Both the position numbers and the translations under genes were made by a program. A DNA stretch of 64,000 bases. It comes from Eledone cirrhosa. Its lineage: Eukaryota. The stretch's first letter is position 1. The number at the start of each line of letters is the position of its first letter. The notes below the pieces were generated by a model. It was given only the letters and a program-made list of their open reading frames with translations, was not told the DNA's origin and ran no database searches. The stretch is from NCBI GenBank assembly GCA_964016885.1, contig OZ024743.1, forward strand, positions 302,932,001 through 302,996,000. The letters are read 5' to 3'. This document shows positions 3,739-50,285 of this stretch, piece after piece.

Positions 3739-3997
3739 GATTTCATTTATTGGCCACAAGGGCCGACATATAGGGGACAACACAATAGACAGGGACAGTG
3801 GGGGTTTACATAGAGATCGAGTAAGTATAAATAACAAAAAAACAAAAACAAAATAACAATAAAAATACAACAATGAAAGTTCCCCAATAAGAGGGATCAC
3901 CACCCAGGGTTGACTCAAGCACCCCACCAGTCCTGAGCCACCCGACGCTCCTAGGGCACCCGGGAAGGGCACCCCTCTCCTTCTCGAATTCACCAGC

Positions 3998-6900
3998 CTA
4001 CAGGCGCATGATCAGAGTAGGCCCACTCACGCGGGCCATTCTCGCCACATTCACCCACCTTTCAGTAAATGTACTGGGGGGCAGCACTTCTCTCTCCACC
4101 CTCACCTTCCTTTCCAAGTGAAACTTGAAGAAGTTGATGAGGGATTGGCCGAAGAGAAAAGTGTCTGTCTTCAGTCCTTTCAACCTGGTCCACCATGCAA
4201 CCTCTTTCGCTACTGCCACCAGGCAGAGGAAAATTGCCTGCCCTTCCTGACCAAAAGAAGGCGGCGGGTCAATCTTCACTATGGACTCGGACGATAGCCG
4301 GATCCGTTCTACACGCGACAATAGCTGTTCGACATAACCCCACAAGTCAGCAATGCACGGACACTGGACGAGTGCGTGCAGAACGGTTTCGTCGCTCTGC
4401 GCGCATCTCGGGCAGGTTCGTCTGACAGCACTTCCGTGCCTGTAGAGTTTATCCCGAACCGGCAGCGCCCCCCGGTAGCACTGCCAAGCGAGGGATTTCT
4501 GGAAGTTATCCATCGTCCCCGGCTCGAAAGTCCTCCGGAACATACTGGTCAGTTCTACTTCGTTGACGCCCAGAGCCTCTCCTAGTACGTCATCGCACTT
4601 GCCCTCCACTAATCCTCTATAGAAATCTTGAGTGGAAGTTCCACTGACCGCATTGCCCACCTTGCAGAGTGCAGTGAGCGCCTGGCAACATTCCAGATGC
4701 CAGTCGCCCAGTCTCGGTCTCTTCTTGACCCAGGACTGCAGCTCAGTCAAAGAGATGAGCTGCGGAAAGGCCCGTCTAACAAACGGCGACCACACCTGTT
4801 CACCGTTTAGGCAAAATATCTGGAGATGTCGCAGCCTCAGCGCATGCCTGCGCATCATTAGCCACGGCATGCCCAGCCCTCCACGAAGAGGGTGCTGGCA
4901 GCAGATGGACCGCCTCACCAACGGGACCCGTCCCCTCCACAAAAATTTGAAAAGGAGCCGTTCCAAATTGGCGAGGCGTGGACGGGGGCAAGGCACGACG
5001 GTCAGGCGGTAGTAGATGACGGACGCGATGTACGCGTTCGCCACCTCCGCCCGCCCTTTCAGTGATAGCTTTCTCTCAGCCCATTTCTGGGTGAGGTTGG
5101 CTATCCTGCTCGTCACCTCGTCCCAATTCTTATCCACCTGGAGGTCTGGTCCGAACCAAACCCCGAGCAACTTTATCGGTCCGTCTGTCCAGCGCCCAAC
5201 GACGCTGTTGGACGGCATGGACTTGCCTCTCCAGGTGCCGAGCTGCAAGCCCACCGACTTTTCCGGGTTAAGTTTTGCTCCCGTCAACCTTTCATATTCC
5301 TCCAAATGGGTGCGGATCACCTCGATTTCCGAGGTGTCCGACACCATCACGGTGATGTCGTCTGCATAAGCGGACGCAGCCTTTCTGCGTCCCGGTTCGA
5401 GCGGGATGCCCTGCAACAACTCCAGCTTCCGCAGTAGAGGCTCAAGAGTCAATACGTACAGAAGTGAGGAGAGAGGGCACCCTTGACGGACCGATCGAGA
5501 GATCTGAAACGGTTCCGAGAGGTGGCCATTAACTTTGACCACCGAGCGGATGCCGCTGTACATTGCAGCGATCCAGCTTCTGAAGACGGGGCCGAAGCCA
5601 GCCGCCTCGAGGACAGCCTCCAAGTACCGATGGTCGACCCTATCGAATGCTTTCGATTGATCTAAATTGATCAGAGCCCCACCGAAGCCAGGTTTGCACC
5701 CAACCCTCTCTATGATGTATCGCATGAGGTGGAGGTTGTCGTGTATGGACCTGGTCGGGATTGCGCAAGTTTGCGCCTCCCCAACCAAATCTTTGACGAC
5801 AAGCGCCAACCTTTTCGCTAACACCTTGGCCAAAATCTTAAACTCTGTGTTGAGCAGGGTTATGGGCCTGAAATTATCTAGTGTGTCCCTCTTGTTCTCG
5901 TCTTTCCTTATCAGCGTCACTACGCCACGGCTCACAGAACTGGGAATGCTCCCGTTCTGCTGCCAGTTGCAGTAGAGCGCTTCGAGGAGATCGGAGAACA
6001 AGTCTGGCATATTTACGTAAAGCTCGTAGGGCAGACCATCCAAACCGGGTGACTTGCGACTCGAGCAGCCGACAAGGGCGTCCTGAATTTCGGCTGATGT
6101 TATCGGCTCTTCGCAGCGCTCAGCGTCGGCCGTCGAGAGGCGTGGCAAGCCGTCGAGGTAGGGACTGAAGTCCGCCGCCATCTCCGACTCACCCATCCTC
6201 CCGAACAATCGAGCAAAGTGCTGGCGAAAGGCCTCACACATCTGCTTGGAATCGCTCAGTTCGTGTCCATCTCGATCCGTCAAAGACCGAATTGTGGTTT
6301 TATTTCCACGCTGCGTCTCTGCAAAGCGAGCCCATCGGGCAGCTTTGGTTCCCTCGTTCCTCAGAGCACGCGCCTTAGCTCTGACAATGCAACCTTCGTG
6401 TTTCGCATTGAAGAAATGGTCTAGTGCCATTCTCGCCGCTAGCACGTCTGTTGCAATGCCACTACAAATAGCCTCGTCTAACTTAGCTATCAGCCCCTCC
6501 TCCTTTCTATTTTTCTCTATTGCTACTTCTTTGCTAAATCCTATCGAGGTTGCTCTAATCTCTCTTTTGAGTGCCCCCCACCACCTGTTGTTGACAACCC
6601 CCCCTGTCAACTTTTGCTTAACTAAGTTGTTGACCCGGTCCCTGTAAGCTTTACGTGCCGGAAACGACATGTTTAGCTTCCAGTAGCTAGGTCCTAACCT
6701 ACGTGTCTTATCTAGGTCGACCATACAGATCACAAGCTTGTGATCTGAATAGGCAACCGTTTTAAAATGTGGACATCCTACACTATTTCTATCTCTTTTC
6801 CTAATGAAAATCCTATCTATGTACGATCTAGATGACCCTATGCGATTGGTCCAGGTCCATACTGGCGCATTAGGGAAATCTAGTCGGTACCTGTCAGACA

Positions 6901-7417
6901 GTTGAAACTGGCTGATCAGGTACTTGAGGCTTTTGCACCCCCCGCTCCTATCAGATACTCCCACACAATCCCAGCGTGCTTCTAAGATGCCATTCCAATC
7001 CCCTATTAACAGTAAAGGGCGAGACGTAAGCAGAAAGTTTTCCAGGCGCCTAAAGAAGTCCGGCCGACCGGCCCCAGTAGGAGCGTAGACGGCCACCAGT
7101 CTAAAGGCACCACCTTCGCTATTGCTCACGTCCAGGACCACCAACTTTCCGTCAGGATCCCGGAAGATTGACCTTACCTCGAGATCCAGACATTTCCTAA
7201 ACAGCACAGCCACTCCACCTCCCATTCCCGGCCGACTAACAGATGCAAAGATCTGATAATCGTCGAAAATCGGCGCCAGTGCGCGTGTGTCGGAAATTCT
7301 GGTCTCGCTGATGGCAATTACATCCATTCCTAGTGACCTGAGGTCGTTGAGCAAGTGACCTTGCTTCCAGGGCGACCCCAGGCCACGAACATTTAAACTT
7401 CCTACTCTTATGGCCAT
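3998..7417 (-). CDS. Tx1-A ORF2: APE endonuclease + reverse transcriptase + C-terminal CCHC, 1139 aa, intact
   Basis: SLNVRGL, VYAP, GDWN, YIDRIF, SDHK (APE); KSPGLDG, RPITLLN, DQSKAFDRV, QGCPLS, YADD (RT); CPRC..ETVLHALVQC. Confidence 0.95.
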   Translation of the reverse strand: MAIRVGSLNVRGLGSPWKQGHLLNDLRSLGMDVIAISETRISDTRALAPIFDDYQIFASVSRPGMGGGVAVLFRKCLDLEVRSIFRDPDGKLVVLDVSNSEGGAFRLVAVYAPTGAGRPDFFRRLENFLLTSRPLLLIGDWNGILEARWDCVGVSDRSGGCKSLKYLISQFQLSDRYRLDFPNAPVWTWTNRIGSSRSYIDRIFIRKRDRNSVGCPHFKTVAYSDHKLVICMVDLDKTRRLGPSYWKLNMSFPARKAYRDRVNNLVKQKLTGGVVNNRWWGALKREIRATSIGFSKEVAIEKNRKEEGLIAKLDEAICSGIATDVLAARMALDHFFNAKHEGCIVRAKARALRNEGTKAARWARFAETQRGNKTTIRSLTDRDGHELSDSKQMCEAFRQHFARLFGRMGESEMAADFSPYLDGLPRLSTADAERCEEPITSAEIQDALVGCSSRKSPGLDGLPYELYVNMPDLFSDLLEALYCNWQQNGSIPSSVSRGVVTLIRKDENKRDTLDNFRPITLLNTEFKILAKVLAKRLALVVKDLVGEAQTCAIPTRSIHDNLHLMRYIIERVGCKPGFGGALINLDQSKAFDRVDHRYLEAVLEAAGFGPVFRSWIAAMYSGIRSVVKVNGHLSEPFQISRSVRQGCPLSSLLYVLTLEPLLRKLELLQGIPLEPGRRKAASAYADDITVMVSDTSEIEVIRTHLEEYERLTGAKLNPEKSVGLQLGTWRGKSMPSNSVVGRWTDGPIKLLGVWFGPDLQVDKNWDEVTSRIANLTQKWAERKLSLKGRAEVANAYIASVIYYRLTVVPCPRPRLANLERLLFKFLWRGRVPLVRRSICCQHPLRGGLGMPWLMMRRHALRLRHLQIFCLNGEQVWSPFVRRAFPQLISLTELQSWVKKRPRLGDWHLECCQALTALCKVGNAVSGTSTQDFYRGLVEGKCDDVLGEALGVNEVELTSMFRRTFEPGTMDNFQKSLAWQCYRGALPVRDKLYRHGSAVRRTCPRCAQSDETVLHALVQCPCIADLWGYVEQLLSRVERIRLSSESIVKIDPPPSFGQEGQAIFLCLVAVAKEVAWWTRLKGLKTDTFLFGQSLINFFKFHLERKVRVEREVLPPSTFTERWVNVARMARVSGPTLIMRL

Positions 7418-7446
7418 GCTGGCAGGATGAATGGGAGAGGAAAGGT

Positions 7447-9357
7447 TTACTTACCTTCCGGGGTCTTGTGAAGGTCGGGTGGTTCGACCTCCATGGTTTG
7501 TGGGGTTTCTTTTGGGAACCCCTTTAATAGTCTTGACGTGGGTTTTACGTTCGGGGTTCCCACATCCCGAGGAAAGCTCTTTCGAATTTCTTTGTATGAA
7601 GCGAGCGACATTCGCATCAGAAGCAAATTATCTGGTACGCGAAATGTGCTCGCTTCAAATGTTTCCCCGTCTTTTTCGATGTTTGTGCTTCGTGCTACAT
7701 GGGCCATCAATTCCTTGTTGGCCCTTCTGGCAAGCACGAAGTTTTTAATGTTTTGTTGCTCGGGTTTTATTTGTTCGTGTGATTGTGGTGGTGATAGCTT
7801 TGTTAGTGTTGTTTCTATTGTGTCTGCGTTTGTTGTGGGTGGGGTGTCTGTAGTTTCTGATGTTTGTGTGTCTATTTGTTCTTGTGTCTGTTTAGCTTGT
7901 TTGCGTTTGGGGGATTTTGGTGGTTGTGTTGGTGATGCTGTGGGGAAAATGTTTGTGTGGGTGGTGTGTGTATTTTTTTTTGTGGGGGTGTTTGTGCTTT
8001 GTGGATTTCTTTTTTTTTTGTGTTTTGTTTTTTGTATTTTGGGGGACTTTGGTTTTCCCTCATCTTCACTGCTGGAGGATGAGGGGTCTGTGGCTGTGAG
8101 CGTGTTTGTGTCTGAGTGAGTGTTTATGTTCTTGTTCGTGTGTGTATTTTGGGGGGGAGGGGGAATGGGAGAGCTTTCCTCGTTTCCCCCCTGGGTGTGC
8201 AATTTTGGTGGTTCCATTGTTAACGGTGTTGCTGGTGGTCCTTGTCCCGGCGTCGCCAGCAGTGGAATCTTTCGACCCCTTGCGCTTTTCGGCAGTTGAG
8301 GGCAGAAGGCTCGCAAGTGTGTCGTTTCCCCACAAAGGAAACAATGCGGCCTTTTGCCCTCAGTCATTATATGCAACACCCTCCCGTTTTGGAGGCGGAT
8401 GTGGTCCGGGATTGTTTTTACGTTTTCGGGTCTGATTTGGAGCAGTATCTCCAGATCAACCCCGGACCAGTCGTCCCTGGCAGTTCTCGTTGCCTCTACC
8501 GGGACTGTATCCGTTCCTTCCACGATTACGCAACCCAGGAGCCACCACATATCAAGTCCTGGTGGAATCCTGGGAATGCGCACACGTGCTATTCGTTTTC
8601 CCATGTGGGAGGGGTACATTATGACCTTGCTGGTTTTGCAAGGGGTCATTGAATGCTTCACAGCGAGGGCTTCAGACTTGAACAGCACCGAAACGGTGCC
8701 GTATTGCCTGCCCCTCTCTATGAAGTCTGTGTCCTCTCTGATGTATTTCAGTGCGGCTTCTATGTCAGCTTGGGCGATTATCGCTGCCCTCTTTGTCTCT
8801 ACTGAGATGCATCTGAAATGCACCGTTCTTTTTTCCACTGCCTCAATGGCTTCTGCCGGGACAGTTAAGTTTGCCCAGGTCTGCTCTTGATTTATGATTT
8901 TCCAGGCCTGGGCCAACTTTTCCTCTCTGTTGGTTAAGTCGATGCTGTAGCATGGTCTCCTTTTAGCCGCTGCCACAGCAGCGAAAGTGTTCTTGTTGGT
9001 GTTGTCACTGTTGTTGTTCTTGTTGGTGTTGCTGCTGCTATTGCTGTTGTTGTTCTCCCCTGTGTCGTGGTTACCTTCTGTGCTGTTGGCCTTGTTGGTG
9101 CTGCTGCTGTCGCTACTATTACTCTCTGTGCTGTTCGTTTTGTTGGTGCTCTCGCTATTACCACCTTCTGCGCTGTTCGGCTTGTTGGTGTTGGTGTTGT
9201 CGCTGTTACCACCTTCCGCGCCGCTCGGCCCGTTGGTGCTGGCACTGTCGCTGCTCACATTCGTGCTGGTGGCGCTCCTCGCCTCACCTCTCCTCTCAAC
9301 GCTCAAGTCGCCGTTGCACGACAGCAGACCCGCCTCTAGGGGGCGTGGCTCCGCCAT
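7447..9357 (-). CDS. Tx1-A ORF1 (gag-like nucleic-acid-binding protein), 636 aa, intact
   Basis: Directly upstream of ORF2; zinc knuckle CFLCGETTHLRAFC (CX2CX4HX4C); low-complexity S/N/T and P/T/K segments. Confidence 0.85.
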   Translation of the reverse strand: MAEPRPLEAGLLSCNGDLSVERRGEARSATSTNVSSDSASTNGPSGAEGGNSDNTNTNKPNSAEGGNSESTNKTNSTESNSSDSSSTNKANSTEGNHDTGENNNSNSSSNTNKNNNSDNTNKNTFAAVAAAKRRPCYSIDLTNREEKLAQAWKIINQEQTWANLTVPAEAIEAVEKRTVHFRCISVETKRAAIIAQADIEAALKYIREDTDFIERGRQYGTVSVLFKSEALAVKHSMTPCKTSKVIMYPSHMGKRIARVRIPRIPPGLDMWWLLGCVIVEGTDTVPVEATRTARDDWSGVDLEILLQIRPENVKTIPDHIRLQNGRVLHIMTEGKRPHCFLCGETTHLRAFCPQLPKSARGRKIPLLATPGQGPPATPLTMEPPKLHTQGGNEESSPIPPPPQNTHTNKNINTHSDTNTLTATDPSSSSSEDEGKPKSPKIQKTKHKKKRNPQSTNTPTKKNTHTTHTNIFPTASPTQPPKSPKRKQAKQTQEQIDTQTSETTDTPPTTNADTIETTLTKLSPPQSHEQIKPEQQNIKNFVLARRANKELMAHVARSTNIEKDGETFEASTFRVPDNLLLMRMSLASYKEIRKSFPRDVGTPNVKPTSRLLKGFPKETPQTMEVEPPDLHKTPEGK

Positions 9358-9567
9358 GTTTTTTTGAGAAAAAAATTATTATTTTTTTTCAAAATAAAGT
9401 TCAAATATTTGGGCCAAAAGGCCCAAATATTATGAGTTATTCCTTCACAGGATACAAATTAATGTCTTATAATGCTTCAGCGGTACAAAAAATAAACAAT
9501 TCTCTACAATTAATCCTCAAAAATTGCTTACTCACGGAGCTTCAAAAAACGTACATCCACTTTCGTC

Positions 9568-9620
<53 letters not shown>
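9568..9620. repeat. (TAA)n between the 5' ends of Tx1-A and Dong-A1
   Basis: Seen directly. Confidence 0.95.
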
Positions 9621-12600
9621 GGGAAGAAGACGCACGAGGTGGCGGAGGTCATGAAATCGCTCCCGTAAGTTTTGAATTTTTAACATATTTAAATCATTTG
9701 TGAAATAACAACTCTTAGTACAAATGCTACGTAAAGCACCCGGCTTGAGCCCCAAAAAATTCGGACCCAAAATATGTTGTTATAAGGCTCAAATATTCAA
9801 ATATTCAACTTTGTATTGTACACTGTATATCCAAAAAAGAAAATGGCTATAAATGGAAGAAGAACCCCCCCCCCCCCTCCCCTCCTCTGTCTACACTATA
9901 TAGAACAGCCAAACCAGAAACTAGATACACCACCCACCCCATCACCTGTGTACACTAAACACAACAGCCAGATAACGGCATTTTCGCCACCACCGCTCAC
10001 TACTGCCATCATTTCCACCACTATCCCATCACCGCCGCCACCACCCCTTCACTCCTTCACTGCTACCACCGCTACAGCACCATCACTACAGTAATACGGT
10101 CACATCACCGCCACCACTGCCTCGGTATCGCCATCACCACCACCACTCTCTCAGTATCGCTACCGCCGCCAGTCTCCCACTTCTCCTAGCTGGATGCTGC
10201 CAACACATTATAGAATTCCTACTACTAAAAAAGATGAAGGCATCAAAATATATAGATAGACTCAAAAGAAAAAAGGAAAAACAAACAACAAAACCAAAGC
10301 AGCACAGCAACAACAGCAAAAAACGAGAAAATCATAGAAACAAACAAAAAAAAAAACCAAAAAACGTAAAGAAAATAAGAATGAAGAGAGAAGCAGGTGG
10401 ACGGATAGAGAAGAGGGGGGAAAAACTAAAACTTAAAAAACAAAAACTAAGTCAGACATTCGAACACTACATTACAATGAAACTTATGCTTATTCATTTT
10501 TGGGGCCCTTCTGCCTGTGTGTTTGTTTGTTCATGTGTGTTCGTATACAGCGTGGTGATAATGCCACACAAGGGCCAAGTGGAACGGCGAATCCACAGAT
10601 GGCTATGTTACCATACATTCGCCAATCCTCGATAAGAGTGTTTAAATATCGAACATAAACAGTTCGAATAACGGTGAAATGGAGACTAGAACGTCATGTG
10701 ACAGACTCTCACCCAACAGGTGCCCCCTGGCTCAGCAGCAGGAACCTGACTGTCAACCAAATACTGCTGATGTTGGAGGAAGAAGAAGAAGGAAAGGGGC
10801 CAGAACCAACTGGACGAAAGAATTGAATAGAACTGTTATGCAATGTTACCTGAAAAGTAACCCCAAGGAGAGGGGCTACAGGAGACGGATGCATAACATC
10901 TGGAACGAGATTGGTCTATTTAAATTAGATGAACAAAAATTGGCCGGGCAGGCTCGGGTAATAAGAACTAATGGGTGGATAAGCGAGCTGGAACTGGAGG
11001 AACTGAGCAGAGAGAATGGCTTGGAGATGGCGGGTGTAGTATGCCAGACAAGCGAGCCAGTGGGAAATGAAGGTGAAGAGGTTCTGAGAACGGAGGAACC
11101 ACCCGAAGCAGACAATGATCTGAATACTGAGATAAATAATACCTGGAACAGAGATACGGCCACTGAGGAGATGAATGCTGACGGGCTAGGACAAGATTCG
11201 GTTGACATCCTAAATTTAGTGGTAGATGAATTGAACAATGATAGTGGGAGACCTATAAACCTAAAATTTGTAGACAGGAAAAAGTTAAAAGAAACAACAG
11301 CTAAGGTAAACAAAGTCATCCCATACCTTGAGGCGTGGAGCCTTCACCAGTGCAACAGTATCCTCAAAGCAACAGCAAATACGGTGAGGAAACTACTTGG
11401 TATAAAAGCGAGAGGAAACAACAGACAAGAAAGAGCAGAGCCGTGGTGGAAGAAACGACTGAGTGGTCAAATCGGGGAAATGAGAAATGACATAGGAAAG
11501 CTTGAGTCACTACTGAATGGGACACTAAAAAACATAGGCACTAAAAATAGACTGGAAATAAAGTACAAAACTAGGAGGAAAAAGCTAAATATTATCATAG
11601 AGGAACTGAAGCAACGCATTGTAGCAAAGAGTGCAAAAATCAGGCGATACGAGAACAGAGTCAGTCAGTATAAACAGAACCGCATGTTCGACAACAACCA
11701 GAAGATGCTGTTTGGACAGCTTGAGGAGAAAGAAAGAGGCAACGACTTGATCCCTGGGGCGGAGCAAACTAAAACATTCTGGAGAGGAATATGGGAGCAG
11801 GATGTTAGACATAATGTCCAGGCAGGGTGGATTGAGACAGTACAGAGGGAGATCGGTGAGCAGGCACACCAACAAACTGATTTGAGTATCACAGTTGAAA
11901 CTCTTAAGGGGCAGGCCAAAAAACTAACCAACTGGAAATCACCAGGCCCAGATGGTGTGCAGGGGTATTGGATTAAAAATTTAACATCCCTCCACCCGAA
12001 GCTGACGGCCATGTTCAATGACTGCTTGGTGTCGGGTGAGGTGCCAGAGTGGTTGACAAAAGGTACCACAGTTCTGATAATGAAAGACCGAATCAAGGGT
12101 AATGATGTTACCAACTATAGACCTATCACATGTCTGTCCGTAATGTGGAAACTGTTGACGAGCATTGTGTCTGAAGAAATCTACCATCACCTCCACACAA
12201 ACAACTTGTTACCGGACGAACAGAAAGGATGCCGAAAGAAGTCACGTGGTACAAAGGACCAGTTACTTATTGATAAGATGGTAATGGGGAATTGCAGGAG
12301 GAGACACACTGATCTTGCCATGGGATGGATAGACTACAGAAAGGCATTTGACATGGTCCCTCATTCTTGGATCACCAAAAGCCTGGAGATCTTCGGGTTG
12401 GCAGATAACACCAGACAGTTGCTGGGCAGGAGTATGGGGTCCTGGGAGACAGAGTTGACATCAACTGGAGTATCCTTGGGAAGCGTGAAGATCAAGAGAG
12501 GTATCTTCCAGGGAGATAACCTGTCCCCTCTGTTGTTTGTCCTTGCCCTGATGCCCTTGACCATTATGCTGCGAAAAGTGAGAGCAGGATACAAGCTGGG

Positions 12601-14145
12601 AAAGGGAGAGCTTACCATCAATCACCTCCTCTTCATGGACGATCTTCAGCTCTTCGGGAAAAGTGAGAAGTAGTTGGATGTGCTTGTTGACACTGTCCGT
12701 ATTTTCGGCAGTGATATATGTATGCAGTTTGGTATTAGGAAATGTGGAGTCATTGTGATGAGGAGGGGTAGGTTGACCAGAAGTAACGGGATCCAGATAC
12801 CAACAGGTGAGATGATAAAGGAAATTGACTCTGAGGAAGGATACAAGTATTTGGGCGTTCTGGAGGCTGATGGCATAAAGAACAAAAAAATGAAGGAATT
12901 GTTAAGAACTGAATACATTCGGAGAGTAAGGAGCGTATTGAAGTCACATCTGAACAGCAGAAATGCCATAAGCGCAGTAAATTCCCGAGCTGTGTCTATT
13001 ATTAGGTACAGCGCGGGAATTCTGAGATGGAATGTTGCTGAACAAAAAGAAATGGATAGGAAGACTAGGAAGCTATTGACTATCTACAACATCTTCCACA
13101 AGAGGAGTGATGTCGATAGACTCTACCTAAGGAGATCTGACGGTGGAAGAGGTTTTATCAGCATAGAGGACTGTGTTCAGATGGAGAAAAACAACCTACC
13201 CAAATACGTGACCTATAGTAAGGAGCCAATGCTCAGAACTGTACTGAAAGAGGGGACAGTAGGCCAGGGGATGTCCAAGGAGGAAATAACATCAAGGAGG
13301 AAGAGCAGCCTTAAGGGAAAATCCCTTCATAGTACCTTCTTTGAGAAAACTGAATTTAGAGATCCACAGACATTTAACTGGTTGAGAAGAGGAGACCTCA
13401 AAAAGGCTACAGAAGGAATGCTAATGGCTGCGCAGGAGCAGGCCCTCAAAACGAAGTGGTTGAAGCACCATATTTACAAGGAGGAGGCTAGCCCACTGTG
13501 CAGGATCTGTGGAGAGAGAGAGGAGACTGTGGCTCACATTGTGTCCGAGTGTAAACACCTAGCCCAGACCCACTATAAGGGCTGGAGACACGATGTGATG
13601 GGCAGGGTGATCCACTGGCACCTGTGCAAAGTAAACAATCTACCACATTCTGAGAAATGGTATGAGCATAGGCCAGAGGCGGTGATGGAGAACAGTCAGG
13701 TGAAGGTGCTGTGGGATTTTAGGATACAGACGGACAAAAAACTGGAACACAATAGACCTGACCTGGTGGTTGTGGACAAAGAAAAAAGATCGTGTCTGAT
13801 TGTCGATGTGGCCTGCCCGTTCGACACGAGAGTGCAAGAGAAGGAGAGGGAGAAAATTAACCGATACCAGGACCTAAGGTGGGAGGTGAAAAGGATTTGG
13901 AACTGCCATGAAGTCAAAGTGAACCCGATTGTCATAGGCGCACTGGGGACTATCTCCAAAAGTTTCCAGGGATGGTTAAAGAAAATCGACCCCTTCACGC
14001 TTTTTGGAACGCTTCAAAAGGCATGCTTGCTAGGAACAACAAGAACCCTCCGATACGTCCTGAATATCTGAGGCTGCAGGTAGTGGCTTGATATTCATTC
14101 CAACGGACTTTCCAGTTAACCAACATCAATGACTGAGATTCAAGG
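9621..14145 (+). mobile_element. Full-length R4/Dong-clade RLE retrotransposon, family A copy 1
   Basis: Leader starting GGGAAGAAGAC, single-ORF RT-CCHC-RLE architecture, 3' end GACTGAGATTCAAGG + (TAA)n; near-identical to 14220-19058. Confidence 0.9.
10679..14071 (+). pseudogene. Dong-A1 ORF with one nonsense codon (TAG at 12671-12673)
   Basis: AAG TAG TTG versus AAG GAG TTG in copy 2; same frame continues to 14071. Confidence 0.9.
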
Positions 14146-14219: not shown

Positions 14220-14385
14220 GGGAAGAAAACGCACGAGGTGACGGAGGTCATGAAATCGCTCCCGTAAGTTTTGAATTTTTAACATATTTAAATCATTTGT
14301 GAAATAACAACTCTTAGTACAAATGCTACGTAAAGCACCCGGCTTGAGCCCCAAAAAAATTCGGACCCAAAATATATTGTTATAA

Positions 14386-15017
14386 GGCTCAAATATTCAA
14401 ATATTCAACTTTGTATTGTACACTGTATATCCAAAAAAAAAAAAAAATGGCTATAAATGGAAGAAGAAGAACCCCCCCCCCCCCACTATAAAGGACAGCT
14501 AAACTCACCAACACCAGAAACTAGATACACCACCCACCCCATCATCTGTGTACACTAAACACAACAGCATTTTCACCTTCACCACCACCGCTCACTACGG
14601 CCATCATTACCACCACTATCCCATCACCGCCGCCACCACCCCTTGACTCCTTCACTGCTGCTGCCACCGCTACAGCACCATCACTACAGTAATACGGCTC
14701 AAATATTCAAATATTCAACTTTGTATTGTACACTGTATATCCAAAAAAAATAAAATGGCTATAAATGGAAGAAGAAGAACCCCCCCCCCTCCTCTCCTCT
14801 GGCTACACTATATAGGACAGCGAAACTCACCAACACCAGAAACTAGATACACCACCCACCCCATCATCTGTGTACACTAAACACAACAGAATTTTCACCT
14901 TCACCGCCACCGCTCACTACGGCCATCATTACCACCACTATCCCATCACCGCCGCCACCACCCCTTGACTCCTTCACTGCTGCTGCCACCGCTACAGCAC
15001 CATCACTACAGTAATAC
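14386..15017 (+). repeat. Tandem duplication of a ~310-320-bp leader unit (14386-14695, 14696-15017)
   Basis: Both units start ggctcaaatattcaaatattcaactttg and end cactacagtaatac; single unit in copy 1. Confidence 0.9.
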
Positions 15018-15591
15018 GGTCGCATCATCGCCACCACTGCCTCGGTATCGACATCACCACCACCACTGTCTCAGTATCGCCAACGCCGCCAGTCTCTGCT
15101 GGCTGCCACTTCCACATTATAGAATTCCTACTACTAACAAAGAGGAAGGCATCAAAATATATAGATAGACTCAAAAGAAAAAAGAAAAAACAAACAACAA
15201 AAGCAGCACAGCAACAACAGCAAAAAACGAGAAAAACAAACAGAAAAACAAAAACAAAAAAAGAAACCCCAAAAACGTAAAGAAAATAAGAATGAAGAGA
15301 GAAGCAGGCGGACGGACAGAGAAGAGGGGGGGGGAAAGTAAAACTTAAAAAACAAAAACTAAGTCAGACATTCGAATACTACATTACAATGAAACTTATG
15401 CTTATTCATTTTTGGGGCCCTTTCTGCCCGTGTGTTTGTTTGTTTATGTGTGTCCGTATACAGCGTGGTGATAATGCCACACAAGGGCCAAGTGGGATGG
15501 CGGTTCCACAGATGGCTATGTAAACATACATTCGCCAATCCTCGATAAGAGTGTTTAAATATCGAACATAAACAGTTCGAATAACGGTGAA

Positions 15592-18500
15592 ATGGAGACT
15601 AGAATGTCATGTGACAGACTCTCACCCAACAGGTGCCCCCTGGCTCAGCAGCAGGAACCTGACTGTCAACCAAATACTGCTGATGTTGGAGGAAGAAGAA
15701 GAAGGAAAGGGGCCAGAACCAACTGGACGAAAGAATTGAATAGAACTGTTATGCAATACTACATGAAAAGTAACCTCAAGGAGAGGGGCTACAGGAGACG
15801 GATGCATAACATCTGGAACGAGATTGGTTTATTTAAATTAGATGAACAAAAATTGGCCGGGCAGGCTCGGGTAATAAGAACTAATGGGTGGATAAGCGAG
15901 CTGGAACTGGAGGAACTGAGCAGAGAGAATGGCTTGGAGATGGCGGGTGTAGTATGCCAGACAAGCGAGCCGGCGGGAAATGAAGGTGAGGAGGTCCTGA
16001 GAACGGAGGAACCACCCGAAGCAGACAATGATCTGAATACTGAGATAAATAATACCTGGAACAGAGATACGGCCACTGAGGAGATGAATGCTGACGGGCT
16101 AGGACAAGATTCGGTTGACATCCTAAATTTAGTGGTAGATGAGTTGAACAATGATAGTGGGAGACCTATGAACCTAAGATTTGTAGACAGGAAAAAGTTA
16201 AAAGAAACAACAGGTAAGGTAAACAAAGTCATCCCATACCTTGAGGCGAGGAGTCTTTACCAGTGCAACAATATCCTCAAAGCAACAGCAAATACGGTGA
16301 GGAAACTACTTGGTATAAAAGCGAGAGGAAACAACAGACAAGAAAGAGCAGAGCCGTGGTGGAAGAAGCGACTGAGTGGGCAAATCGGGGAAATGAGAAA
16401 TGACATAGGAAAGCTTGAGTCACAACTGAATGGGACACTAAAAAACATAGGCACTAAAAATAGACTGGAAATAAAATACAAAACTAGGAGTAAAAAGCTA
16501 AATATTATCATAGAGGAATTGAAGCAACGCATTGTAGCAAAGAGTGCCAAAATCAGGCGATACGAGAACAGAGTCAGTCAGTATAAACAGAACCGCATGT
16601 TCGACAACAACCAGAAGATGCTGTTTGGACAGCTTGAGGGGAAAGAAAGAGGCAACGACTTGATCCCTGGGGCGGAACAAGCTAAAACATTCTGGAGAGG
16701 AATATGGGAGCAGGATGTTAGACACAATGCCCAGGCAGGGTGGATTGAGACAGTACAGAGGGAGATCGGTGAGCAGGCACAACAACAGACTGATTTGAGT
16801 ATCACAGTTGAAACTCTTAAGGGGCAAGCCAAAAAACTAACCAACTGGAAATCACCAGGCCCAGATGGTGTGCAGGGGTATTGGATTAAACATTTAACAT
16901 CCCTCCACCCGAAGCTGACGGCCATGTTCAATGACTGCTTGGTGTCGGGTGAGGTGCCAGAGTGGTTGACAAAAGGTACCACAGTTCTGATAATGAAAGA
17001 CCGAATCAAGGGTAATGATGTTACCAACTATAGACCTATCACATGTCTGCCCGTAATGTGGAAACTGTTGACGAGCATTGTGTCTGAGGAAATCTACCAT
17101 CACCTCCACACAAACAACTTGTTGCCGGACGAACAGAAAGGATGCCGAAAGAAGTCACGTGGTACAAAGGACCAGTTGCTTATTGATAAGATGGTAATGG
17201 GGAATTGCAGGAGGAGACACACTGATCTTGCCATGGGATGGGTAGACTACAGAAAGGCATTTGACATGGTGCCTCATTCCTGGATCACGAAAAGCCTGGA
17301 GATCTTCAGGGTGGCAGATAACATCAGACAGTTGCTGGGCAGGAGTATGGGGTCCTGGGAGACAGAGTTGACATCAACTGGAGTATCCTTGGGAAGCGTG
17401 AAGATCAAGAGAGGTATCTTCCAGGGAGATAGCCTGTCCCCTCTGTTGTTTGTCCTTGCCCTGATGCACTTGACCATTATGCTGCGAAAAGTGAGAGCAG
17501 GATACAAGTTGGGAAGGGGAGAGCTTACCATCAATCACCTCCTCTTCATGGACGATCTTAAGCTCTTCGGGAAAAGTGAGAAGGAGTTGGATGTGCTTGT
17601 TGACACTGTCCGTATTTTCAGCAGTGATATATGTATGCAGTTTGGTATTGGTAAATGTGGAGTCATTGTGATGAGGAGGGGTAGGTTGAGCAGAAGTAAC
17701 GGGATCCAGATACCAACAGGTGAGATGATACAGGAAATTGACTCTGAGGAAGGATACAAGTATTTGGGCGTTCTGGAGGCTGATGGCATAAAGAACAAAA
17801 AAATGAAGGAATTGTTAAGAACTGAATACATTCGGAGAGTAAGTAGCGTATTGAAGTCACATCTGAACAGCAGAAATGCCATAAGCGCAGTAAATTTCCG
17901 AGCTGTGTCTATTATTAGGTACAGTGCGGGAATTCTGAGATGGAATGTTGCTGAACAAAAAGAAATGGATAGGAAGACTAGGAAGCTATTGACTATCTAC
18001 AACATGTTCCACAAGAGGAGTGATGTCGATAGACTCTACCTAAGGAGATCTGAGAGTGGAAGAGGTCTTATCAGCATAGAGGACTGTGTTCAGATGGAGA
18101 AAAACAACCTATACAAATACGTGACCTATAGTAAGGAGCCAACGCTCAGAGCTGTACTGAAGGAGGGGACAGTAGGCCAGGGGATATCCAAGGAGGAAAT
18201 AACATCAAGGAGGAAGAGCAGCCTTAAGGGAAAATCCCTTCATAGTACCTTCTTTGAGAAAACTGAATTTAGAGATCCACAGACATGGAACTGGTTGAGA
18301 AGAGGAGACCTCAAAAAGGCTACAGAAGGAATGCTAATGGCTGCGCAGGAGCAGGCCTTCAAAACGAAGTGGTTGAAGCACCATATCTACAAGGAGGAGG
18401 CTAGCCCACTGTGCAGGATCTGTGGAGAGAGAGAGGAGACTGTGGCTCACATTGTGTCCGAGTGTAAACACCTAGCCCAGACCCACTATAAGGGCTGGAG

Positions 18501-18984
18501 ACACGATGTGATGGGCAGGGTGATCCACTGGCACCTGTGCAAAGTAAACAATCTACCACATTCTGAGAAATGGTATGAGCATAGGCCAGAGGCGGTGATG
18601 GAGAACAGTCAGGTGAAGGTGCTGTGGGATTTTAGGATACAGACGGACAAAAAACTGGAACACAATAGACCTGACCTGGTGGTTGTGGACAAAGAAAAAA
18701 GATCGTGCCTGATTGTGGATGTGGCCTGCCCGTTCGACACGAGAGTGCAAGAGAAGGAGAGGGAGAAAATTAACCGATACCAGGACCTAAAGTGGGAGGT
18801 GAAAAGGATTTGGAACTGCCATGAAGTCAAAGTGATCCCGATTGTCATAGGCGCACTGGGGACTATCTCCAAAGGTTTCCAGGGATGGTTAAAGAAAATC
18901 GGCCCCTTCACGCTTTTTGGAACGCTTCAAAAGGCATGCTTGCTTGGAACGGCAAGAACCCTCCGATACGTCCTGAATATCTGA
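15592..18984 (+). CDS. Dong-A2 intact ORF: RT + CCHC + restriction-like endonuclease, 1130 aa
   Basis: WKSPGPDG, YRPITCL, DYRKAFDMV, GIFQGDSLS, FMDD; CRIC..ETVAHIVSEC; RHD; RPDLVVVD..IVDVACP..K..RY (PD-(D/E)xK-type). Confidence 0.95.
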   Translation: METRMSCDRLSPNRCPLAQQQEPDCQPNTADVGGRRRRKGARTNWTKELNRTVMQYYMKSNLKERGYRRRMHNIWNEIGLFKLDEQKLAGQARVIRTNGWISELELEELSRENGLEMAGVVCQTSEPAGNEGEEVLRTEEPPEADNDLNTEINNTWNRDTATEEMNADGLGQDSVDILNLVVDELNNDSGRPMNLRFVDRKKLKETTGKVNKVIPYLEARSLYQCNNILKATANTVRKLLGIKARGNNRQERAEPWWKKRLSGQIGEMRNDIGKLESQLNGTLKNIGTKNRLEIKYKTRSKKLNIIIEELKQRIVAKSAKIRRYENRVSQYKQNRMFDNNQKMLFGQLEGKERGNDLIPGAEQAKTFWRGIWEQDVRHNAQAGWIETVQREIGEQAQQQTDLSITVETLKGQAKKLTNWKSPGPDGVQGYWIKHLTSLHPKLTAMFNDCLVSGEVPEWLTKGTTVLIMKDRIKGNDVTNYRPITCLPVMWKLLTSIVSEEIYHHLHTNNLLPDEQKGCRKKSRGTKDQLLIDKMVMGNCRRRHTDLAMGWVDYRKAFDMVPHSWITKSLEIFRVADNIRQLLGRSMGSWETELTSTGVSLGSVKIKRGIFQGDSLSPLLFVLALMHLTIMLRKVRAGYKLGRGELTINHLLFMDDLKLFGKSEKELDVLVDTVRIFSSDICMQFGIGKCGVIVMRRGRLSRSNGIQIPTGEMIQEIDSEEGYKYLGVLEADGIKNKKMKELLRTEYIRRVSSVLKSHLNSRNAISAVNFRAVSIIRYSAGILRWNVAEQKEMDRKTRKLLTIYNMFHKRSDVDRLYLRRSESGRGLISIEDCVQMEKNNLYKYVTYSKEPTLRAVLKEGTVGQGISKEEITSRRKSSLKGKSLHSTFFEKTEFRDPQTWNWLRRGDLKKATEGMLMAAQEQAFKTKWLKHHIYKEEASPLCRICGEREETVAHIVSECKHLAQTHYKGWRHDVMGRVIHWHLCKVNNLPHSEKWYEHRPEAVMENSQVKVLWDFRIQTDKKLEHNRPDLVVVDKEKRSCLIVDVACPFDTRVQEKEREKINRYQDLKWEVKRIWNCHEVKVIPIVIGALGTISKGFQGWLKKIGPFTLFGTLQKACLLGTARTLRYVLNI

Positions 18985-21161: not shown

Positions 21162-21959
21162 GGGAAGAAGACACACGAGGTGGTAGAACGTCACGAAATT
21201 GCTCCCGTAAGTTTTCTGATTTTTAACATATTTAAATCAATTGTGAAAGAACAATTCTTAGCACAAATGTTGCATAAAGGCACTGAATGAGGTCCCATAA
21301 AGTTTCCGATCCATATTATATTGTTGTATCGCTCAAATATTCAATTTTGTATTATATATTTTGTATTCAAAAAAAGAAAATGGTTATAAATGGAACAAAA
21401 CACCCTCTGTCTACACTATATAGAACAGCGGCAATTTCAATTTCACCAACCCCAGAAACTTGATACACTACCATCACACCAGATAACGGCAATTTCACAG
21501 GCATCATAATAATAATTACTATTATGATTGTCTCAAATTTAAAAAAATGTTTAATTCAAATTTTACGGGAATATGTCAACACAAAATATAATGAAAATAT
21601 ATATTAAACATACGAACACAAACTCATAGATACTATATCAGTAACCACAACACCACCGCTGCCACCACCCCACCACATCCAACATCGCCGCCACCACTCA
21701 TTCAGTGCTACTGACACTATTCCCCTGTTAACTCGAGAGAGAAAAGGGAAGGTGGCGGTAGCACTAGACAAGAGAGAGGCTAGCAAAAGATATAAATAGA
21801 TTGACTTGGTGACCTTGCCACGGCCAAACGTCTACATCAACAATTATGGGACTGCTGGCTCACCCCTTCCTCACCAACAATATAAAAAGCCCCGGCACCA
21901 CCACCGACATAGCCAGCAGCAATAACAGCCAACTACAACAAAAAGTATATTATATTATT

Positions 21960-22010
21960 GTAATGCACTGGGTGATTGCTGGCCTTGTGCCTGAAGTGGA
22001 GATAATTATT
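21960..22010 (+). mobile_element. 3' SINE fragment inside the Dong-B leader
   Basis: gtaatgcactgggtgattgctggccttgtgcctgaagtggagataattatt matches the SINE 3' end. Confidence 0.65.
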
Positions 22011-22257
22011 AATAATTTCATTCTTAAGCCACGCAATGCTCACATTAAGGAACCACTCATGATAATAACAATTTAAAAAAAAACAACAAAAAGAAAACCC
22101 CGTGACCAAGAAATACCGGGATGGGGGCCGGCGGGGAATAGCCATGTCTCTAGGGGAGAACGACCCCTCTAGTCTTGGTTGACACGCGTTCTAGAAGTGG
22201 TAACACGAAATGATTACCCCTTGGCGGATAAGGATAAAACGCGACAAAATAAAGTAA

Positions 22258-25200
22258 ATGTATAATGATAAAATCTCATACCGGATCGGCCGTCACCCGG
22301 GTAAAAAAGTGCCGCGTCCCTCAGAGAGGAACCAGACTGGGGTCGAAAAATCAGCTAATGGTTCAAACCTTCCCATCACTTCGGAGCTGGAGACCTCCCT
22401 TAACCGGAATACTCCTACTGTTGGCCTTCCATGCTCACCACCAAGAAATCCAAAGAAAAAGAGAGAAAAATGGTCAAGGGAAGATAATAAAGAAGTCCTT
22501 GAGGCTTTCTACACTGCCATGTACTACCCATCAAATACATCGAATACAGAACAAACATATATCAACTGGAAAAAGGAACATCCCGAAAACAGAGGCTATA
22601 TTGACAGTAACAAACTAGCCAATATACGAAGAAATATTGTAAGAAAAAAGTTACTAAGTGATATAGAAATTGATCAGATCAAGCTAGTAGCACAAAGTCA
22701 GGGAAGGGAAAATGAAGCATGTGTCAGTGAAAACGAGGTAAACTGTAACACTTCGAATCCCAGGGTTGGGGCGGAATCACTGGCAACAGAACAAATTAAA
22801 GAAAGGAGCGAAAAAGTGGAGGGAGTGCATGCTCAGGATGAAACTCCAAATGAAAATAATGAGATCGTAAATGTTAAAGAAATGAATGAGAATGAACTTG
22901 CCAACTTGAAGGATGAAATTATGATCAAATGGATGAAAATGGAAGAATCTGACATGGGGCAACGAGACACCCTCCCTAAGATCCAGAACTCCAAACAGAA
23001 CCAAAAGATAATACACAAGACTAACATAATTCTCAAAAACATTATCATCACAAACAAACTAAACATTACTGATTTAAATCATCTCTATTATGCATCGGCT
23101 AAAGTCACCACTCACTTATGTGGAGTGAAGATGAAAAAACAAAGGAATTCCCACAAGAAATCTACTTGGCAAGATAACATCAATCGCCAAATAAACCTTC
23201 TCCGATCTGACATAGACATTTTAACAAACTATAAAGTAGGTGAACATGTTAAACAAACTAAACTTAGAAAATTGAAAAAAAAGTACAGTATAAGATCAAC
23301 ATGTGACATAGACATGCTGATAGAAACAATCAAGCAAAAAGTGTCGGCCAAAGCTGCTCGTATAAGGCGCTTTGAAAAACGATCTAGATTCTATAAGGAC
23401 AATAATATGTTCAAAAACAACCAAAGAAACTTCTACAGAAAAATTGGTAAGTCAACAATAACTGCTAAATCAATACCACCCAAGGAGGAAGTGCAAGAAT
23501 TCTGGGAAAAGATCTGGGCCGAAGAAAAAGTTCATAACATACATGCCTCATGGATAGACAGACAAATGAAAGAAACAGCTCACCTTGAAGAACAAACATG
23601 GGAAAATATAACAGTTGAACAGCTGCGCTTGGCTCTAAGTAAAACCAGCAAATGGAAATCCCCAGGAAAAGACAAAATACAAAACATTTGGATAAATGCC
23701 TTCACAGAGTCTCATGATCTGTTAGTCAAACTTTACAATGAAATAGTTAAGGAGCCAGATAAGATACCATCATGGCTAGTTAACGGCATTACATTCCTGC
23801 TACCGAAGAATGATGAGACAAACAATCCCAAAAATTACAGACCGATAACCTGCTTGACGACTATGTATAACATTTTAACATCAGTCCTAACTGAATACAC
23901 ATATGACCACCTGATAACAAATGACCTATTTCCCATTGAGCAGAAAGGGTGTAAACGAGGCTCATATGGCTGTAAGGATCAGCTTCTGGTTAACAAAATG
24001 ATACTGGAAGATTGTCATAAAAGACACAAAAATCTATCGATTGCTTGGATAGATTATAAAAAAGCATTCGATAGTTTGCCACAAAGTTGGATTGAAAAAT
24101 GTTTAGAGATTTTCAAAATATCCCCCCTTGTCAGGAGGTTTTTGTCATTCAGTATGAGGACATGGAGAACGACACTCCTTTTGAATAGTGAAACAAAATC
24201 ACTGGAAGCTGGAGAAGTTAACATTAATTGTGGAATTTTTACGGGTGACTCTTTATCACCGCTTTTATTCTGCATCGCACTTATACCATTAAGTAAAATG
24301 CTCAATGAAACAAAACATGGATATAGAGTCTATGACAAAACCATTAATCACCTGTTCTACATGGATGACCTGAAACTATTTGCAAAAAATGATGAACAAT
24401 TGCAAGGGCTATTATCCACTGTGAAGCAGTTCAGTGATGACATGAAAATGGAGTTTGGACTGGATACATGCGCCAAAGCAACGTTCACCAGAGGAAAGCT
24501 GCTGAAGAGTTCAGACATTAATCTTGATCGGGGGAACGTGATAAGAGAGCTTGATCAAGAAAAAACTTACAAATATCTAGGTGTTTGTGAAGGAGACGGA
24601 ATCAAGCACTCGACAATGAGGGAAAGGATAAGGAAGGAATGTTACCGCAGAGTCAGAGCAATCTTAAGGACGGAATTGAATGCAAGGAATAGGATCGATG
24701 CCATAAACACGCTTGCCATACCAGTAGTAACCTACAGTTACAATGTCATCAACTGGTCAAGCACAGAGATCCGTAGGCACGATACAAAAATCCGAAAATT
24801 CTTAACCATGCACAGAATGCATCACCATAAGGCAGACCAAGATAGAATATATCTCCCTAGGATAGAAGGAGGACGTGGGTTAATCCAGTTAGACATTGCG
24901 TTGAAAACTGCAACAATTGGATTATCCACATATCTAAGGGAATCACATGATTGGATGATCAAACTCGTTTTGAAACACGAAAGCACCAACAGATCATATT
25001 CCATACAGAAGATGCACAAAGATACAGTAATGGACTACAAGTTTCAGAAGTCCCATTTACTGCTGAAATGGAAAACACAGAAAAAGCAAAGCAGGTAAAA
25101 GTAACTGCAAAGAAAGAACTGCTACAGAAACTGGCTAAGAAATGGCAAGAAAAGCCTCTGTATGGAAAATACCCAGAGCGAGCTAACAATCCTGATGTTG

Positions 25201-25907
25201 ACAAAACTTTACCCCATCAGTGGTTGGCATCCTCTGGACTGAAATCGGAGACTGAAGGACTGATTATATCGGCACAAGATCAGTGTCTGCCAACAAAAAA
25301 TTACCAAGCCAACATAATAAAAAATGGGTGCAGCCCATTATGCCGTGTATGCAAAAAACAACCAGAGACCATTGACCATATAATTTCAATGTGCAGTCCT
25401 ATAGCTCCAACCGAATACCTAAACAGGCATGACAGAGCTGCACAATACATACATTGGATAATGTGTAAGCATTTTGACCTGCCCCATCAAAAGAATTGGT
25501 GGGAGCATCAACCACCTCCTATACTTGAAAAAGATCACATCTCAATCTTGTGGAACTTTAGCATCCAAACAGACCGAAAAATAGATGCAAATAGACCTGA
25601 TATATTATTGAAGGACTTTCAAAGGAGGGTATGCCTGCTAATTGATATGTCTGTTCCAATAGACAAGAATGTATCTATAAAAACATTTGAAAAATTGAGC
25701 AAGTATAAGGACCTGGAGATAGAAATTGGAAAAATGTTGAAATTGAGAACTAAAACAATACCAGTGGTTGTAGGCGCTCTGGGAATGATACCTAAGGGGT
25801 CTAACGACTACTTATCGCAAATCCCAGGAAACCCGCGTATAGGAGAAATACAAAAGATAGTACTAATGGGAACTGCCCATATACTAAGGAAGATCCTGTC
25901 AATATAA
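22258..25907 (+). pseudogene. Dong-B ORF with one frameshift near 25005-25012
   Basis: ORF 22258-25098 (WKSPGKD, YRPITCL, YMDD) overlaps ORF 24951-25907 (CRVC..HIISMC, RHD, RPDILL..IDMSVP..K..KY). Confidence 0.88.
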
Positions 25908-49200: not shown

Positions 49201-50212
49201 GAGTGATGTTGATAGAATCTACTTAAGGAGATCTGAATGTGGAAGAGGTCTTATCAACATAGAGGACTGTGTTCAGATGAAAACAAAAAAACCTACACAA
49301 ATACGTGACTGACAGTAGGGAGCCAATGCTCAGAATTGTACTAAAGGAGAGGACTATAAACCAGGGGATGTCCAAGGAGGAAATCACCACAAGGAGGAAG
49401 AGCAACCTTCATGAAAAATCCCTTCATAGTAACTTCTTGGAGAAAACTGAATTTAGAGATCCACAGACATGGAACTGGTTGAAAAGAGGAGCCCTTTAAA
49501 AGGCTAGAGAATGAATGCTAATGGCTGTGCAAGAGCAGGCCCTCAAAATGAAGTGGGTGAAACACCATATTTACAAGGAGGAGGCTAGCCCACTGTGTAG
49601 GATATGTGGAGAGAGAGAGGAGACTGTAGCTCACATTGTATTCGAGTGAAAACACCCTAGCCCAGACTCACTATAAAGGCTGGAGACATGATGTGGTGGG
49701 CAAGGTGATCCACTGGCACCTATGCACAGTAAACAATTTACCACATTCAGAGAAGTGGTATGAGCATAAGCCAGAGTCGTTGATGGAAAACGATTAGGTG
49801 AAGTTGCTATGGGACACAATAGACCTGACCTGGTGATTTTGGACAATGAAAAAAGATCGTGCCTGATTGTAGATGTAGCCAGCCCATTCCACACGAGAGT
49901 GCAAGAGAAGGAGTGGGAGAAAATTAACCGATACCATGACTTAAAGTGGGAGGTAAAAATGATTTGGAACTGCCATGAAGTCAAAGTGGTCTCGATTGTC
50001 ATAGGTGCTCTAGGTATTATCTCAAAGAGTTTCCAAGGATGGTTAAATGAAATTAGTCCAGCCCCGCTTATTGGAACATTTCAAAAGGCATGTTTGCTGG
50101 AAACAGCAAGAACCCTCCCATAAGTCCTGAATTTCTGAGGCTGCAGCTATTGGCTTGGTATTCATTTCAATAAACTTTCCAGTTAAATAACATTAATGAC
50201 TGAGACTCAAAG
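46213..50212 (+). mobile_element. Old, decayed Dong-A-related element
   Basis: Homologous to Dong-A across ORF and 3' end; many stops and frameshifts, internal deletion at ~48350; (TAA)n tail 50213-50286. Confidence 0.9.
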
Positions 50213-50215
50213 AAC

Positions 50216-50285
<70 letters not shown>

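Follow-up and report, generated by a model that had tools for sequence, protein, structure and literature searches.

We propose a model in which one clade of retrotransposons has taken over the 5' end of another in the genome of Eledone cirrhosa. The stretch analysed, hereafter the window, comprises 64,000 nucleotides (nt) of contig OZ024743.1 (assembly GCA_964016885.1; positions 302932001-302996000) and was set against the 3.0 Gb genome. It is an array of retrotransposons that lack long terminal repeats (non-LTR elements), embedded in (AAT)n repeats. In the model, a Dong element, whose protein carries a restriction-like endonuclease (RLE), captured by insertion and read-through the 5' leader of a Tx1 element, which carries an apurinic/apyrimidinic endonuclease (APE), and the leader was later passed on to a second Dong lineage, Dong-B. 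To the account as a whole we give a probability of about 0.75. The parts of the window that bear on it are as follows, where ORF denotes an open reading frame, HMM a profile hidden Markov model and L-numbers the loci retrieved from the genome.

about 3739-9567, minus strand: Tx1-A, whole element, with ORF1 and ORF2
9358-9567, minus strand: 5' leader of Tx1-A, 210 nt
9530-9540, minus strand: GCTCC and the donor-like GTGAGT, with GT at +33 from the start of Tx1-A
9404-9431, minus strand: 12-bp hairpin or palindrome with 3' arm CAAATATT, -17.8 kcal/mol in Tx1-A
9568-9620: (AAT)n target array, (ATT)n as read by Tx1 and (AAT)n as read by Dong
9621-9852, plus strand: leader of Dong-A1, putatively derived from Tx1 (HMM of Tx1 leaders only, E=2e-5)
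9665-9839, plus strand: predicted GT...AG intron of Dong-A1, 175 nt; the equivalent stretch is gone from L126 and L127
9853-9930, plus strand: putative decayed relic of the start of Tx1 ORF1 in Dong-A1, end approximate; weak here, clear in L092, L093 and L095
14220-14456, plus strand: leader of Dong-A2, with donor at 14264 and an A run in place of the acceptor AG
21162-21389, plus strand: leader of Dong-B, with predicted intron 21207-21376 (170 nt); the ATG homologous to that of ORF1 is at 21390

The leaders of Tx1-A and Dong-A1 stand head to head on either side of the repeat at 9568-9620, because the repeat is read as (ATT)n by Tx1 and as (AAT)n by Dong. The Tx1-A leader is well defined, with all 228 nt matched in 40 of the 40 genomic copies scored and with the same first 27 nt after (ATT)n in 29 of 30 loci. 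The initial annotation of the window had read the Tx1-A and Dong leaders as homologous, and it was right as to shared ancestry, which becomes apparent via intermediate families, although the Tx1-A/Dong pair that it named is not significant alone. The element GCTCC(C)GTRAGT is indeed common to all the leaders (9540 on the minus strand, 9659, 14258 and 21201), its distances from GCTCC to ATG of 183 (9540-9357), 184 and 179 nt are reproduced, and the first Dong ATG lies 836 and 878 nt ahead of the Dong ORFs. However, that first ATG is not the equivalent of the Tx1 ORF1 start, as had been assumed; the ORF1 start aligns with the second Dong ATG (9853, 21390), and the match claimed for the first 10 bases is about 12 nt out of register in an alignment of 21 leaders. 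Scored in 16 tests against 500 dinucleotide shuffles, the pair gave z values of -0.7 to 2.6; unrelated AT-rich segments among 1,275 pieces of the window equal it in score, and by the annotation's own standard of a score better than shuffled AT-rich controls it nearly fails. We therefore rejected the pairwise alignment as proof of homology.

The evidence for homology comes from other families. A search of the genome with a two-motif pattern gave 2,885 matches, some double-counted, with 0 for the reversed control; 112 matches were left after exclusion of the common families, and 23 were retrieved from the 100 listed. The retrieved loci are further Tx1 and Dong subfamilies, with one of 20 loci examined being a chance match, and the 21 leaders are colinear in alignment from ahead of GCTCC to beyond CAAATATT. 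Because the motifs had been used for retrieval they were removed before scoring, and with the interior only, z reaches 6 or more in 17 of 91 Tx1-type/Dong pairs (best 12.7), the pairs with Tx1-A itself never rising above 3.1. L121 and L095 give a near gap-free alignment across about 240 nt. With three bridging leaders as similarity queries 20 more loci were retrieved, and remnants of Tx1 ORF1 or ORF2 lie downstream of these old leaders in 16 of the 20, with no match in the other four. An HMM built from 11 Tx1 leaders detects five Dong-type leaders (E from 5e-14 to 2e-4), and it detects Dong-A1 of the window, at the E value given above, and Dong-A2 (5e-5). All 26 of the 26 matches to RGCTCCCGTAAGTT belong to the leader family, and with protein queries for Tx1 and Dong only, no other clade of long interspersed nuclear elements (LINEs) and no host gene carrying the leader turned up. 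From these comparisons the Tx1 and Dong leaders, about 200 bases long, are almost certainly homologous. Two further observations concern the leader family. The locus L208:1043-1600 (plus strand) has a strongly diverged leader and an ORF1-like start, lacks an ORF2 in its vicinity and may belong to a deeper Tx1 family; and leaders of Tx1-B type on bodies with ORF1 nearer Tx1-C (L174/L175, L159, L179 and others) suggest swaps of leader or ORF1 among Tx1 lineages.

The direction of transfer is judged from the sequence past the leader, from an older Dong lineage and from protein phylogeny. In the unrooted leader tree (194 leader matches, 73 rows once near-copies were removed), 12 rows, 10 of them labelled Dong and two unlabelled, form a Dong clade with support 100/100, which is sister to the Tx1 leader L121 (91/89) and then to L122, L123 and L094. 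It is noted that the donor lineage would be an old Tx1 family of this type rather than the neighbouring Tx1-A. Over the 90 nt past the start codon, the Dong locus L092 gives z of 5.0-6.3 against L121, L122 and L094, and z of at most 2.4 against the other eight Tx1 leaders. In L092, L093 and L095 this relic of ORF1 comprises about 27 codons, has GTG as the aligned start codon and terminates in (AAT)n, and in Dong-B of the window the relic scores 5-6 against L122 only. The older Dong lineage, Dong-O, has an aligned 5' region of its own, shared among its copies, and the leader HMM matched 0 of 16 Dong-O loci, while the ORF-proximal untranslated region (UTR) of Dong-O is still recognisable in copies of Dong-A type. 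In a tree of reverse transcriptases (RTs; 18 rows, decayed copies, this genome only), Dong-A joins Dong-O (91/98). Since Dong carries the ORF1 relic, Dong-O has a different 5' end and the RT tree places Dong-A beside Dong-O, the transfer very probably ran from Tx1 to Dong. Note also that old Dong-O copies (L214-L231) are often preceded by repeats of the (TATG)n kind and not by (AAT)n, with a different target and a decayed ribozyme as possibilities.

The proteins of Dong-A and Dong-B are 35-38% identical, and in the same RT tree a clade of the two is rejected (p-AU 0.0004); in the leader tree the Dong-B leaders are interleaved with the leaders on Dong-A bodies, and L053 is a hybrid with an A leader on a B body. 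Because Dong-A and Dong-B do not form a protein clade while their leaders interleave, and with the hybrid L053, a second, later transfer of the leader into the Dong-B lineage is likely.

Based on these results, the following route is proposed, with the insertion step itself being favoured at a little under two to one. Tx1 ORF1 opens with Asn-rich low-complexity codons and therefore has short AAT/AAC tracts on its sense strand. A Dong element, whose target is (AAT)n, would have inserted in sense into such an AAT tract near the ORF1 start, with loss of the native Dong 5' end. Transcription from the Tx1 promoter upstream would then continue across the inserted Dong. The Dong protein would prime at the Dong 3' end and copy the hybrid RNA in full, and the Dong-A lineage would descend from such copies, its 5' UTR made of the Tx1 leader and about 27 dead ORF1 codons. 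Later, through recombination or a switch of template, the Dong-B lineage would have acquired the 5' end of Dong-A. In some Dong transcripts the intron would be spliced, the spliced copies being rare, and dead ends if promoter elements are intronic. The locus L209 is the expected intermediate of such a hybrid: it consists, in order, of a Tx1 leader, 42 ORF1 codons, an in-frame AAT AAT AAT and a Dong-O element clipped in its 5' UTR. Among 30 matches it is the sole locus across the Tx1/Dong-O joint, and as a single locus it was rejected as a second hybrid family.

In the leader of Dong, the stretch from GT to AG behaves like an intron. The lead to it was a joint at 9664, met in the contig of run X2, that pointed to loss of the GT-to-AG stretch before the first ATG. 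This joint was used as a lead only: the contigs of runs X1, X2 and X4, whose kind is unrecorded, give neither start sites nor expression levels, and a low depth of X4 over 9644-9730 was disregarded. Two full-length genomic copies of Dong-B, L126 and L127, lack exactly the GT...AG stretch; they are 94% alike, each is closest (96-97%) to a different unspliced copy, and the joint has no microhomology. By these comparisons the two are independent intron-less copies. A total of 2,037 Dong copies have an unspliced, intact donor, and about 2,040 copies include the two clean losses. Of the 22 Dong leaders in which GT does not come next, one is a chance case, 14 differ by a point change or by 1 nt, and seven loci (six events) have their joint at the donor; two of the six events are clean, two run into an antisense short repeat and two are unclear. 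The donor of L132 and of L139 is joined to a repeat position that, among the aligned copies of the repeat, is preceded by AG in 41 of 105 and in 49 of 129, respectively. The GT donor is likely functional in Dong, and the rarity of spliced copies would fit promoter elements inside the intron, and would fit recent or infrequent splicing also. No spliced copy of Tx1-A was found, and for spliced Dong-A with the exact upstream 21-mer, neither of two matches qualified. As a separate observation, a repeat resembling a short interspersed nuclear element (SINE) inserts antisense in Dong UTRs (L095, L132, L139), offering a splice-acceptor-like site.

The leader probably acts as a promoter, as judged from its position, the clustered 5' ends, its retention and its spread. 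The 5' ends of Dong cluster 38-40 nt upstream of GCTCC (20 of 50) and those of Tx1 25-27 nt upstream of it (60 of 85), and GCTCC is present in 12 of 12 Dong leaders, partly as an effect of how the leaders were selected. Tx1 has kept the hairpin (33 of 52 leaders measurable, median -11.7 kcal/mol), and in Dong it has decayed (10 of 12 measurable, median -0.45 kcal/mol). The Tx1 leader hairpin (9404-9431, minus strand) resembles a stem-loop just before the Tx1 3' end (about 3750-3765, minus strand) and also a motif that ends an abundant short repeat, for which a common recognition element is possible. The motifs AANATGG, RGACG and CAAATA may correspond to YY1, downstream promoter element (DPE) and Fox motifs, respectively. 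An idea of a spliced-leader RNA with an Sm site was dropped, the U-rich motif not being conserved, and an inverted leader copy in the Dong-B UTR, with a local score of 134 without controls and missed by the leader HMM, is not claimed. Rfam gave four sub-threshold matches on the leaders, none credible. For a ribozyme of hepatitis delta virus (HDV) or hammerhead type, the leaders of Dong-A, Dong-B and Tx1-A gave no descriptor match and no Rfam ribozyme, both tests being insensitive, and Dong-O gave one unconvincing descriptor match in 13 5' ends and no Rfam ribozyme in 12 loci, with suggestive pairings only at its 5' end.

Several observations weigh against the account given here. Tx1-A set alone against the Dong leaders of the window is insignificant, as stated above, and unrelated AT-rich segments of the window equal or outscore the pair (229 vs 206 for Dong-A1 and 241 vs 235 for Dong-B). 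The HMM of 11 Tx1 leaders fails to detect Dong-B of the window at E<=0.01, and the leaders were labelled by tblastn, each from a single decayed copy. The leader tree has no root, the branches around its Dong clade are unstarred (89/75, 92/67 and 97/76), and one row, L117, is mislabelled, being a Tx1 leader that owes its Dong label to an adjoining fragment of Dong-B. The ORF1 relic is of low complexity, and it is weak in Dong-A of the window (z<=2.8). With respect to splicing, L140/141 and L152 begin at the donor without a clean AG, and the rate of donor junctions (six events vs 14 small changes) does not exceed that of a control site, where the figures are 2 vs 13 (Fisher p=0.42), the case for splicing resting instead on the repeated exact GT-AG ends. 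The acceptor AG is gone from many Dong-A copies, and splicing at this acceptor is therefore not required. Spliced Tx1 copies were not found, either in the single match of one search or in the 27 examined among 72 matches of another.

An unlikely variant of the route, which leaves direction and function unchanged, is that the Dong RT changed template, leaving Dong RNA for the ORF1 part of an old Tx1 RNA, with no prior insertion. Transfers of the mouse L1 5' UTR occur mostly between co-active families, which fits strand switching (in the part of PMC3600994 available), and the hybrid joints of L053 and L117 are not at long (AAT)n; yet the relic terminates at an AAT tract, which is the target of Dong, both in L209 and in the deepest of the Dong leaders. 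It is quite improbable that Dong, or a third party (a host gene, for example), was where the leader originated, with Tx1 or both clades as recipients. In the unrooted tree the split between Dong and Tx1 is a single branch either way, but this origin is at odds with the dead piece of Tx1 ORF1 carried by Dong, with Dong-O lacking the leader and with the far greater diversity of the Tx1 leaders, in which the hairpin is retained; the motifs of frog L1 5' UTRs, as described in the available part of PMC5381506, also resemble the RGACG...GCTCC pair of the Tx1 leaders.

That the leader was captured but is no promoter in Dong, being a passenger under read-through transcription of the array with the donor kept for RNA processing, for example U1 protection, seems very improbable to us. 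The tandem arrays in which the elements sit and the decay in Dong of the hairpin, and often of the acceptor, would suit this explanation, which is opposed by the retention of the 5' end in the 2,037 Dong copies, its spread to a second lineage, the clustering of 5' ends upstream of GCTCC and the constancy of that motif in the Dong leaders. To convergence on host promoter motifs, which the initial annotation had held open beside an exchange of modules between APE and RLE clades, or to chance in AT-rich DNA, we give next to no probability. Although the named pair is not significant, the L121/L095 alignment and the interior-only z values speak for descent, and colinear similarity outside the motifs, an observation that convergence does not allow, is already in hand. 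Convergence is not supported because the similarity fills the interior between the motifs and continues into the coding sequence of Tx1 ORF1, and it is the exchange between the clades that these data favour.

The coding regions of the elements, and one repeat within them, are located as follows (aa, amino acids).

7447-9357, minus strand: ORF1 of Tx1-A, 636 aa, with low-complexity Asn/Ser/Thr N-terminus and CX2CX4HX4C knuckle
3998-7417, minus strand: ORF2 of Tx1-A, 1139 aa, APE, RT and zf-RVT
10679-14071, plus strand: ORF of Dong-A1, in two pieces, 10679-12673 and 12722-14071
15592-18984, plus strand: ORF of Dong-A2, 1130 aa, with RT, CCHC and RHD/PD..D..K restriction-like endonuclease motifs
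21960-22026, plus strand: piece of the abundant short repeat (SINE-like, our own label) within the Dong-B 5' UTR
22258-25907, plus strand: ORF of Dong-B, in two frames (22258-25098 and 25068-25907), identity to Dong-A as given above

The names Tx1 and Dong are based on architecture and target rather than on a reference tree. Tx1-A has the architecture of the Tx1 clade, with two ORFs and with an N-terminal APE, an RT and a C-terminal zinc motif in ORF2; an ORF1 with a CCHC knuckle and target-specific insertion are features of that clade, and both are present here. The target specificity of Tx1 is described in the available part of PMC4640811. ORF1 had no match in Pfam, and a homologue search gave no clade names among the 120 matches listed. 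Dong-A and Dong-B have the R4/Dong architecture, that is, a single ORF with RT followed by CCHC and PD-(D/E)xK endonuclease motifs (found by eye) and no APE, and also the R4/Dong target of TAA repeats. Elsewhere in these arrays, a 322-nt tandem duplication in the Dong-A2 5' UTR (14382-15019) includes CAAATATT and the ATGs, and the UTR is similarly lengthened in L052 and L065; a rearranged Dong-A-like copy at 46821-50285, 85% identical, is without leader; within ATT tracts the SINE-like repeat is arranged in tandem (L089:1250-2300); a 5'-truncated Dong-B in L009/L040 starts with a 23-nt piece of its own UTR, present five times in tandem; and before some Dong 5' ends (L127, L152, L198, L200) there are (GAA)n expansions of the first bases of the element, beside the (AAT)n target.

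The capture works like the 5' UTR replacement of L1, as a variant of that process in LINEs, but crosses from an APE clade to an RLE clade. As far as the available text of the sources goes, in mammalian L1 a young 3' body likewise gains another 5' end and similar 5' UTRs do not mark clades, but there another L1 family, or an unknown source, is the donor (PMC3600994, PMC5381506); here the recipient is of the R4/Dong RLE type, the donor is APE, and the ORF1 relic and the joint are traceable. Human L1 SpIREs are likewise rare genomic copies missing a GT-AG stretch of the 5' UTR, with the donor conserved since it overlaps a RUNX3 promoter site (PMC5860796, in part), and reduced promoter activity after splicing is a further mark of SpIREs; here, by contrast, the elements are Dong and the stretch comes from a captured leader. 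Loci of 5'-defective L1 are alike in that a promoterless LINE gains an upstream promoter and retrotransposes, but in those cases a host gene supplies the promoter and the loci are single (bioRxiv 10.1101/2025.02.02.635956, in part), whereas here it is supplied by another LINE clade, and families of thousands of copies stem from the hybrid. Dong of Bombyx mori, compared together with R4/R2 elements and as partly available in PMC3774820, has the same single RT-RLE ORF and TAA-repeat target, and unlike Dong-A and Dong-B with their Tx1-derived leader it cleaves itself from a co-transcript at its 5' end, so that the capture may have changed how Dong-A and Dong-B are transcribed. Frog L1 5' UTRs reportedly share (A/G)GACGC(G/A) and GAGCTCCG about 10 bp apart, and this pair, by its description, resembles the RGACG...GCTCC of the Tx1 leaders (PMC5381506, in part). 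For Octopus vulgaris, recent activity is recorded for both Dong-R4 and L1-Tx1, in a main text that, in the part available, does not mention UTRs or promoters (PMC13282606). Capture of a leader across clades was not found in the literature searched, which was of limited coverage and without supplements, and a prior description is possible.

We offer tentatively, at slightly less than even odds, a wider view: an RLE lineage may have replaced an ancestral read-through/ribozyme 5' end by an intron-bearing RNA polymerase II promoter of an APE lineage, because Tx1 and Dong insert into one and the same microsatellite, which also occurs within Tx1 ORF1; the promoter would have spread to a second, distant Dong lineage and enabled expansion. 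The pair of motifs at its core may go back to an ancient promoter element of L1/Tx1 that frog L1 also has. Replacement of 5' UTRs is known within L1, where the source is usually unknown, and here one genome presents the source lineage, the joint, the intermediate, the uncaptured relative and a probable second transfer, across the APE/RLE divide. Repeat libraries are liable to cross-assign the 5' ends of Tx1 and Dong. With this system it could also be tested directly why an intron would be kept by a retrotransposon, the candidate reason being a promoter inside it. Finally, it gives a concrete route for LINEs to gain promoters, and it suggests that the co-targeting of one microsatellite lets unrelated elements exchange parts.

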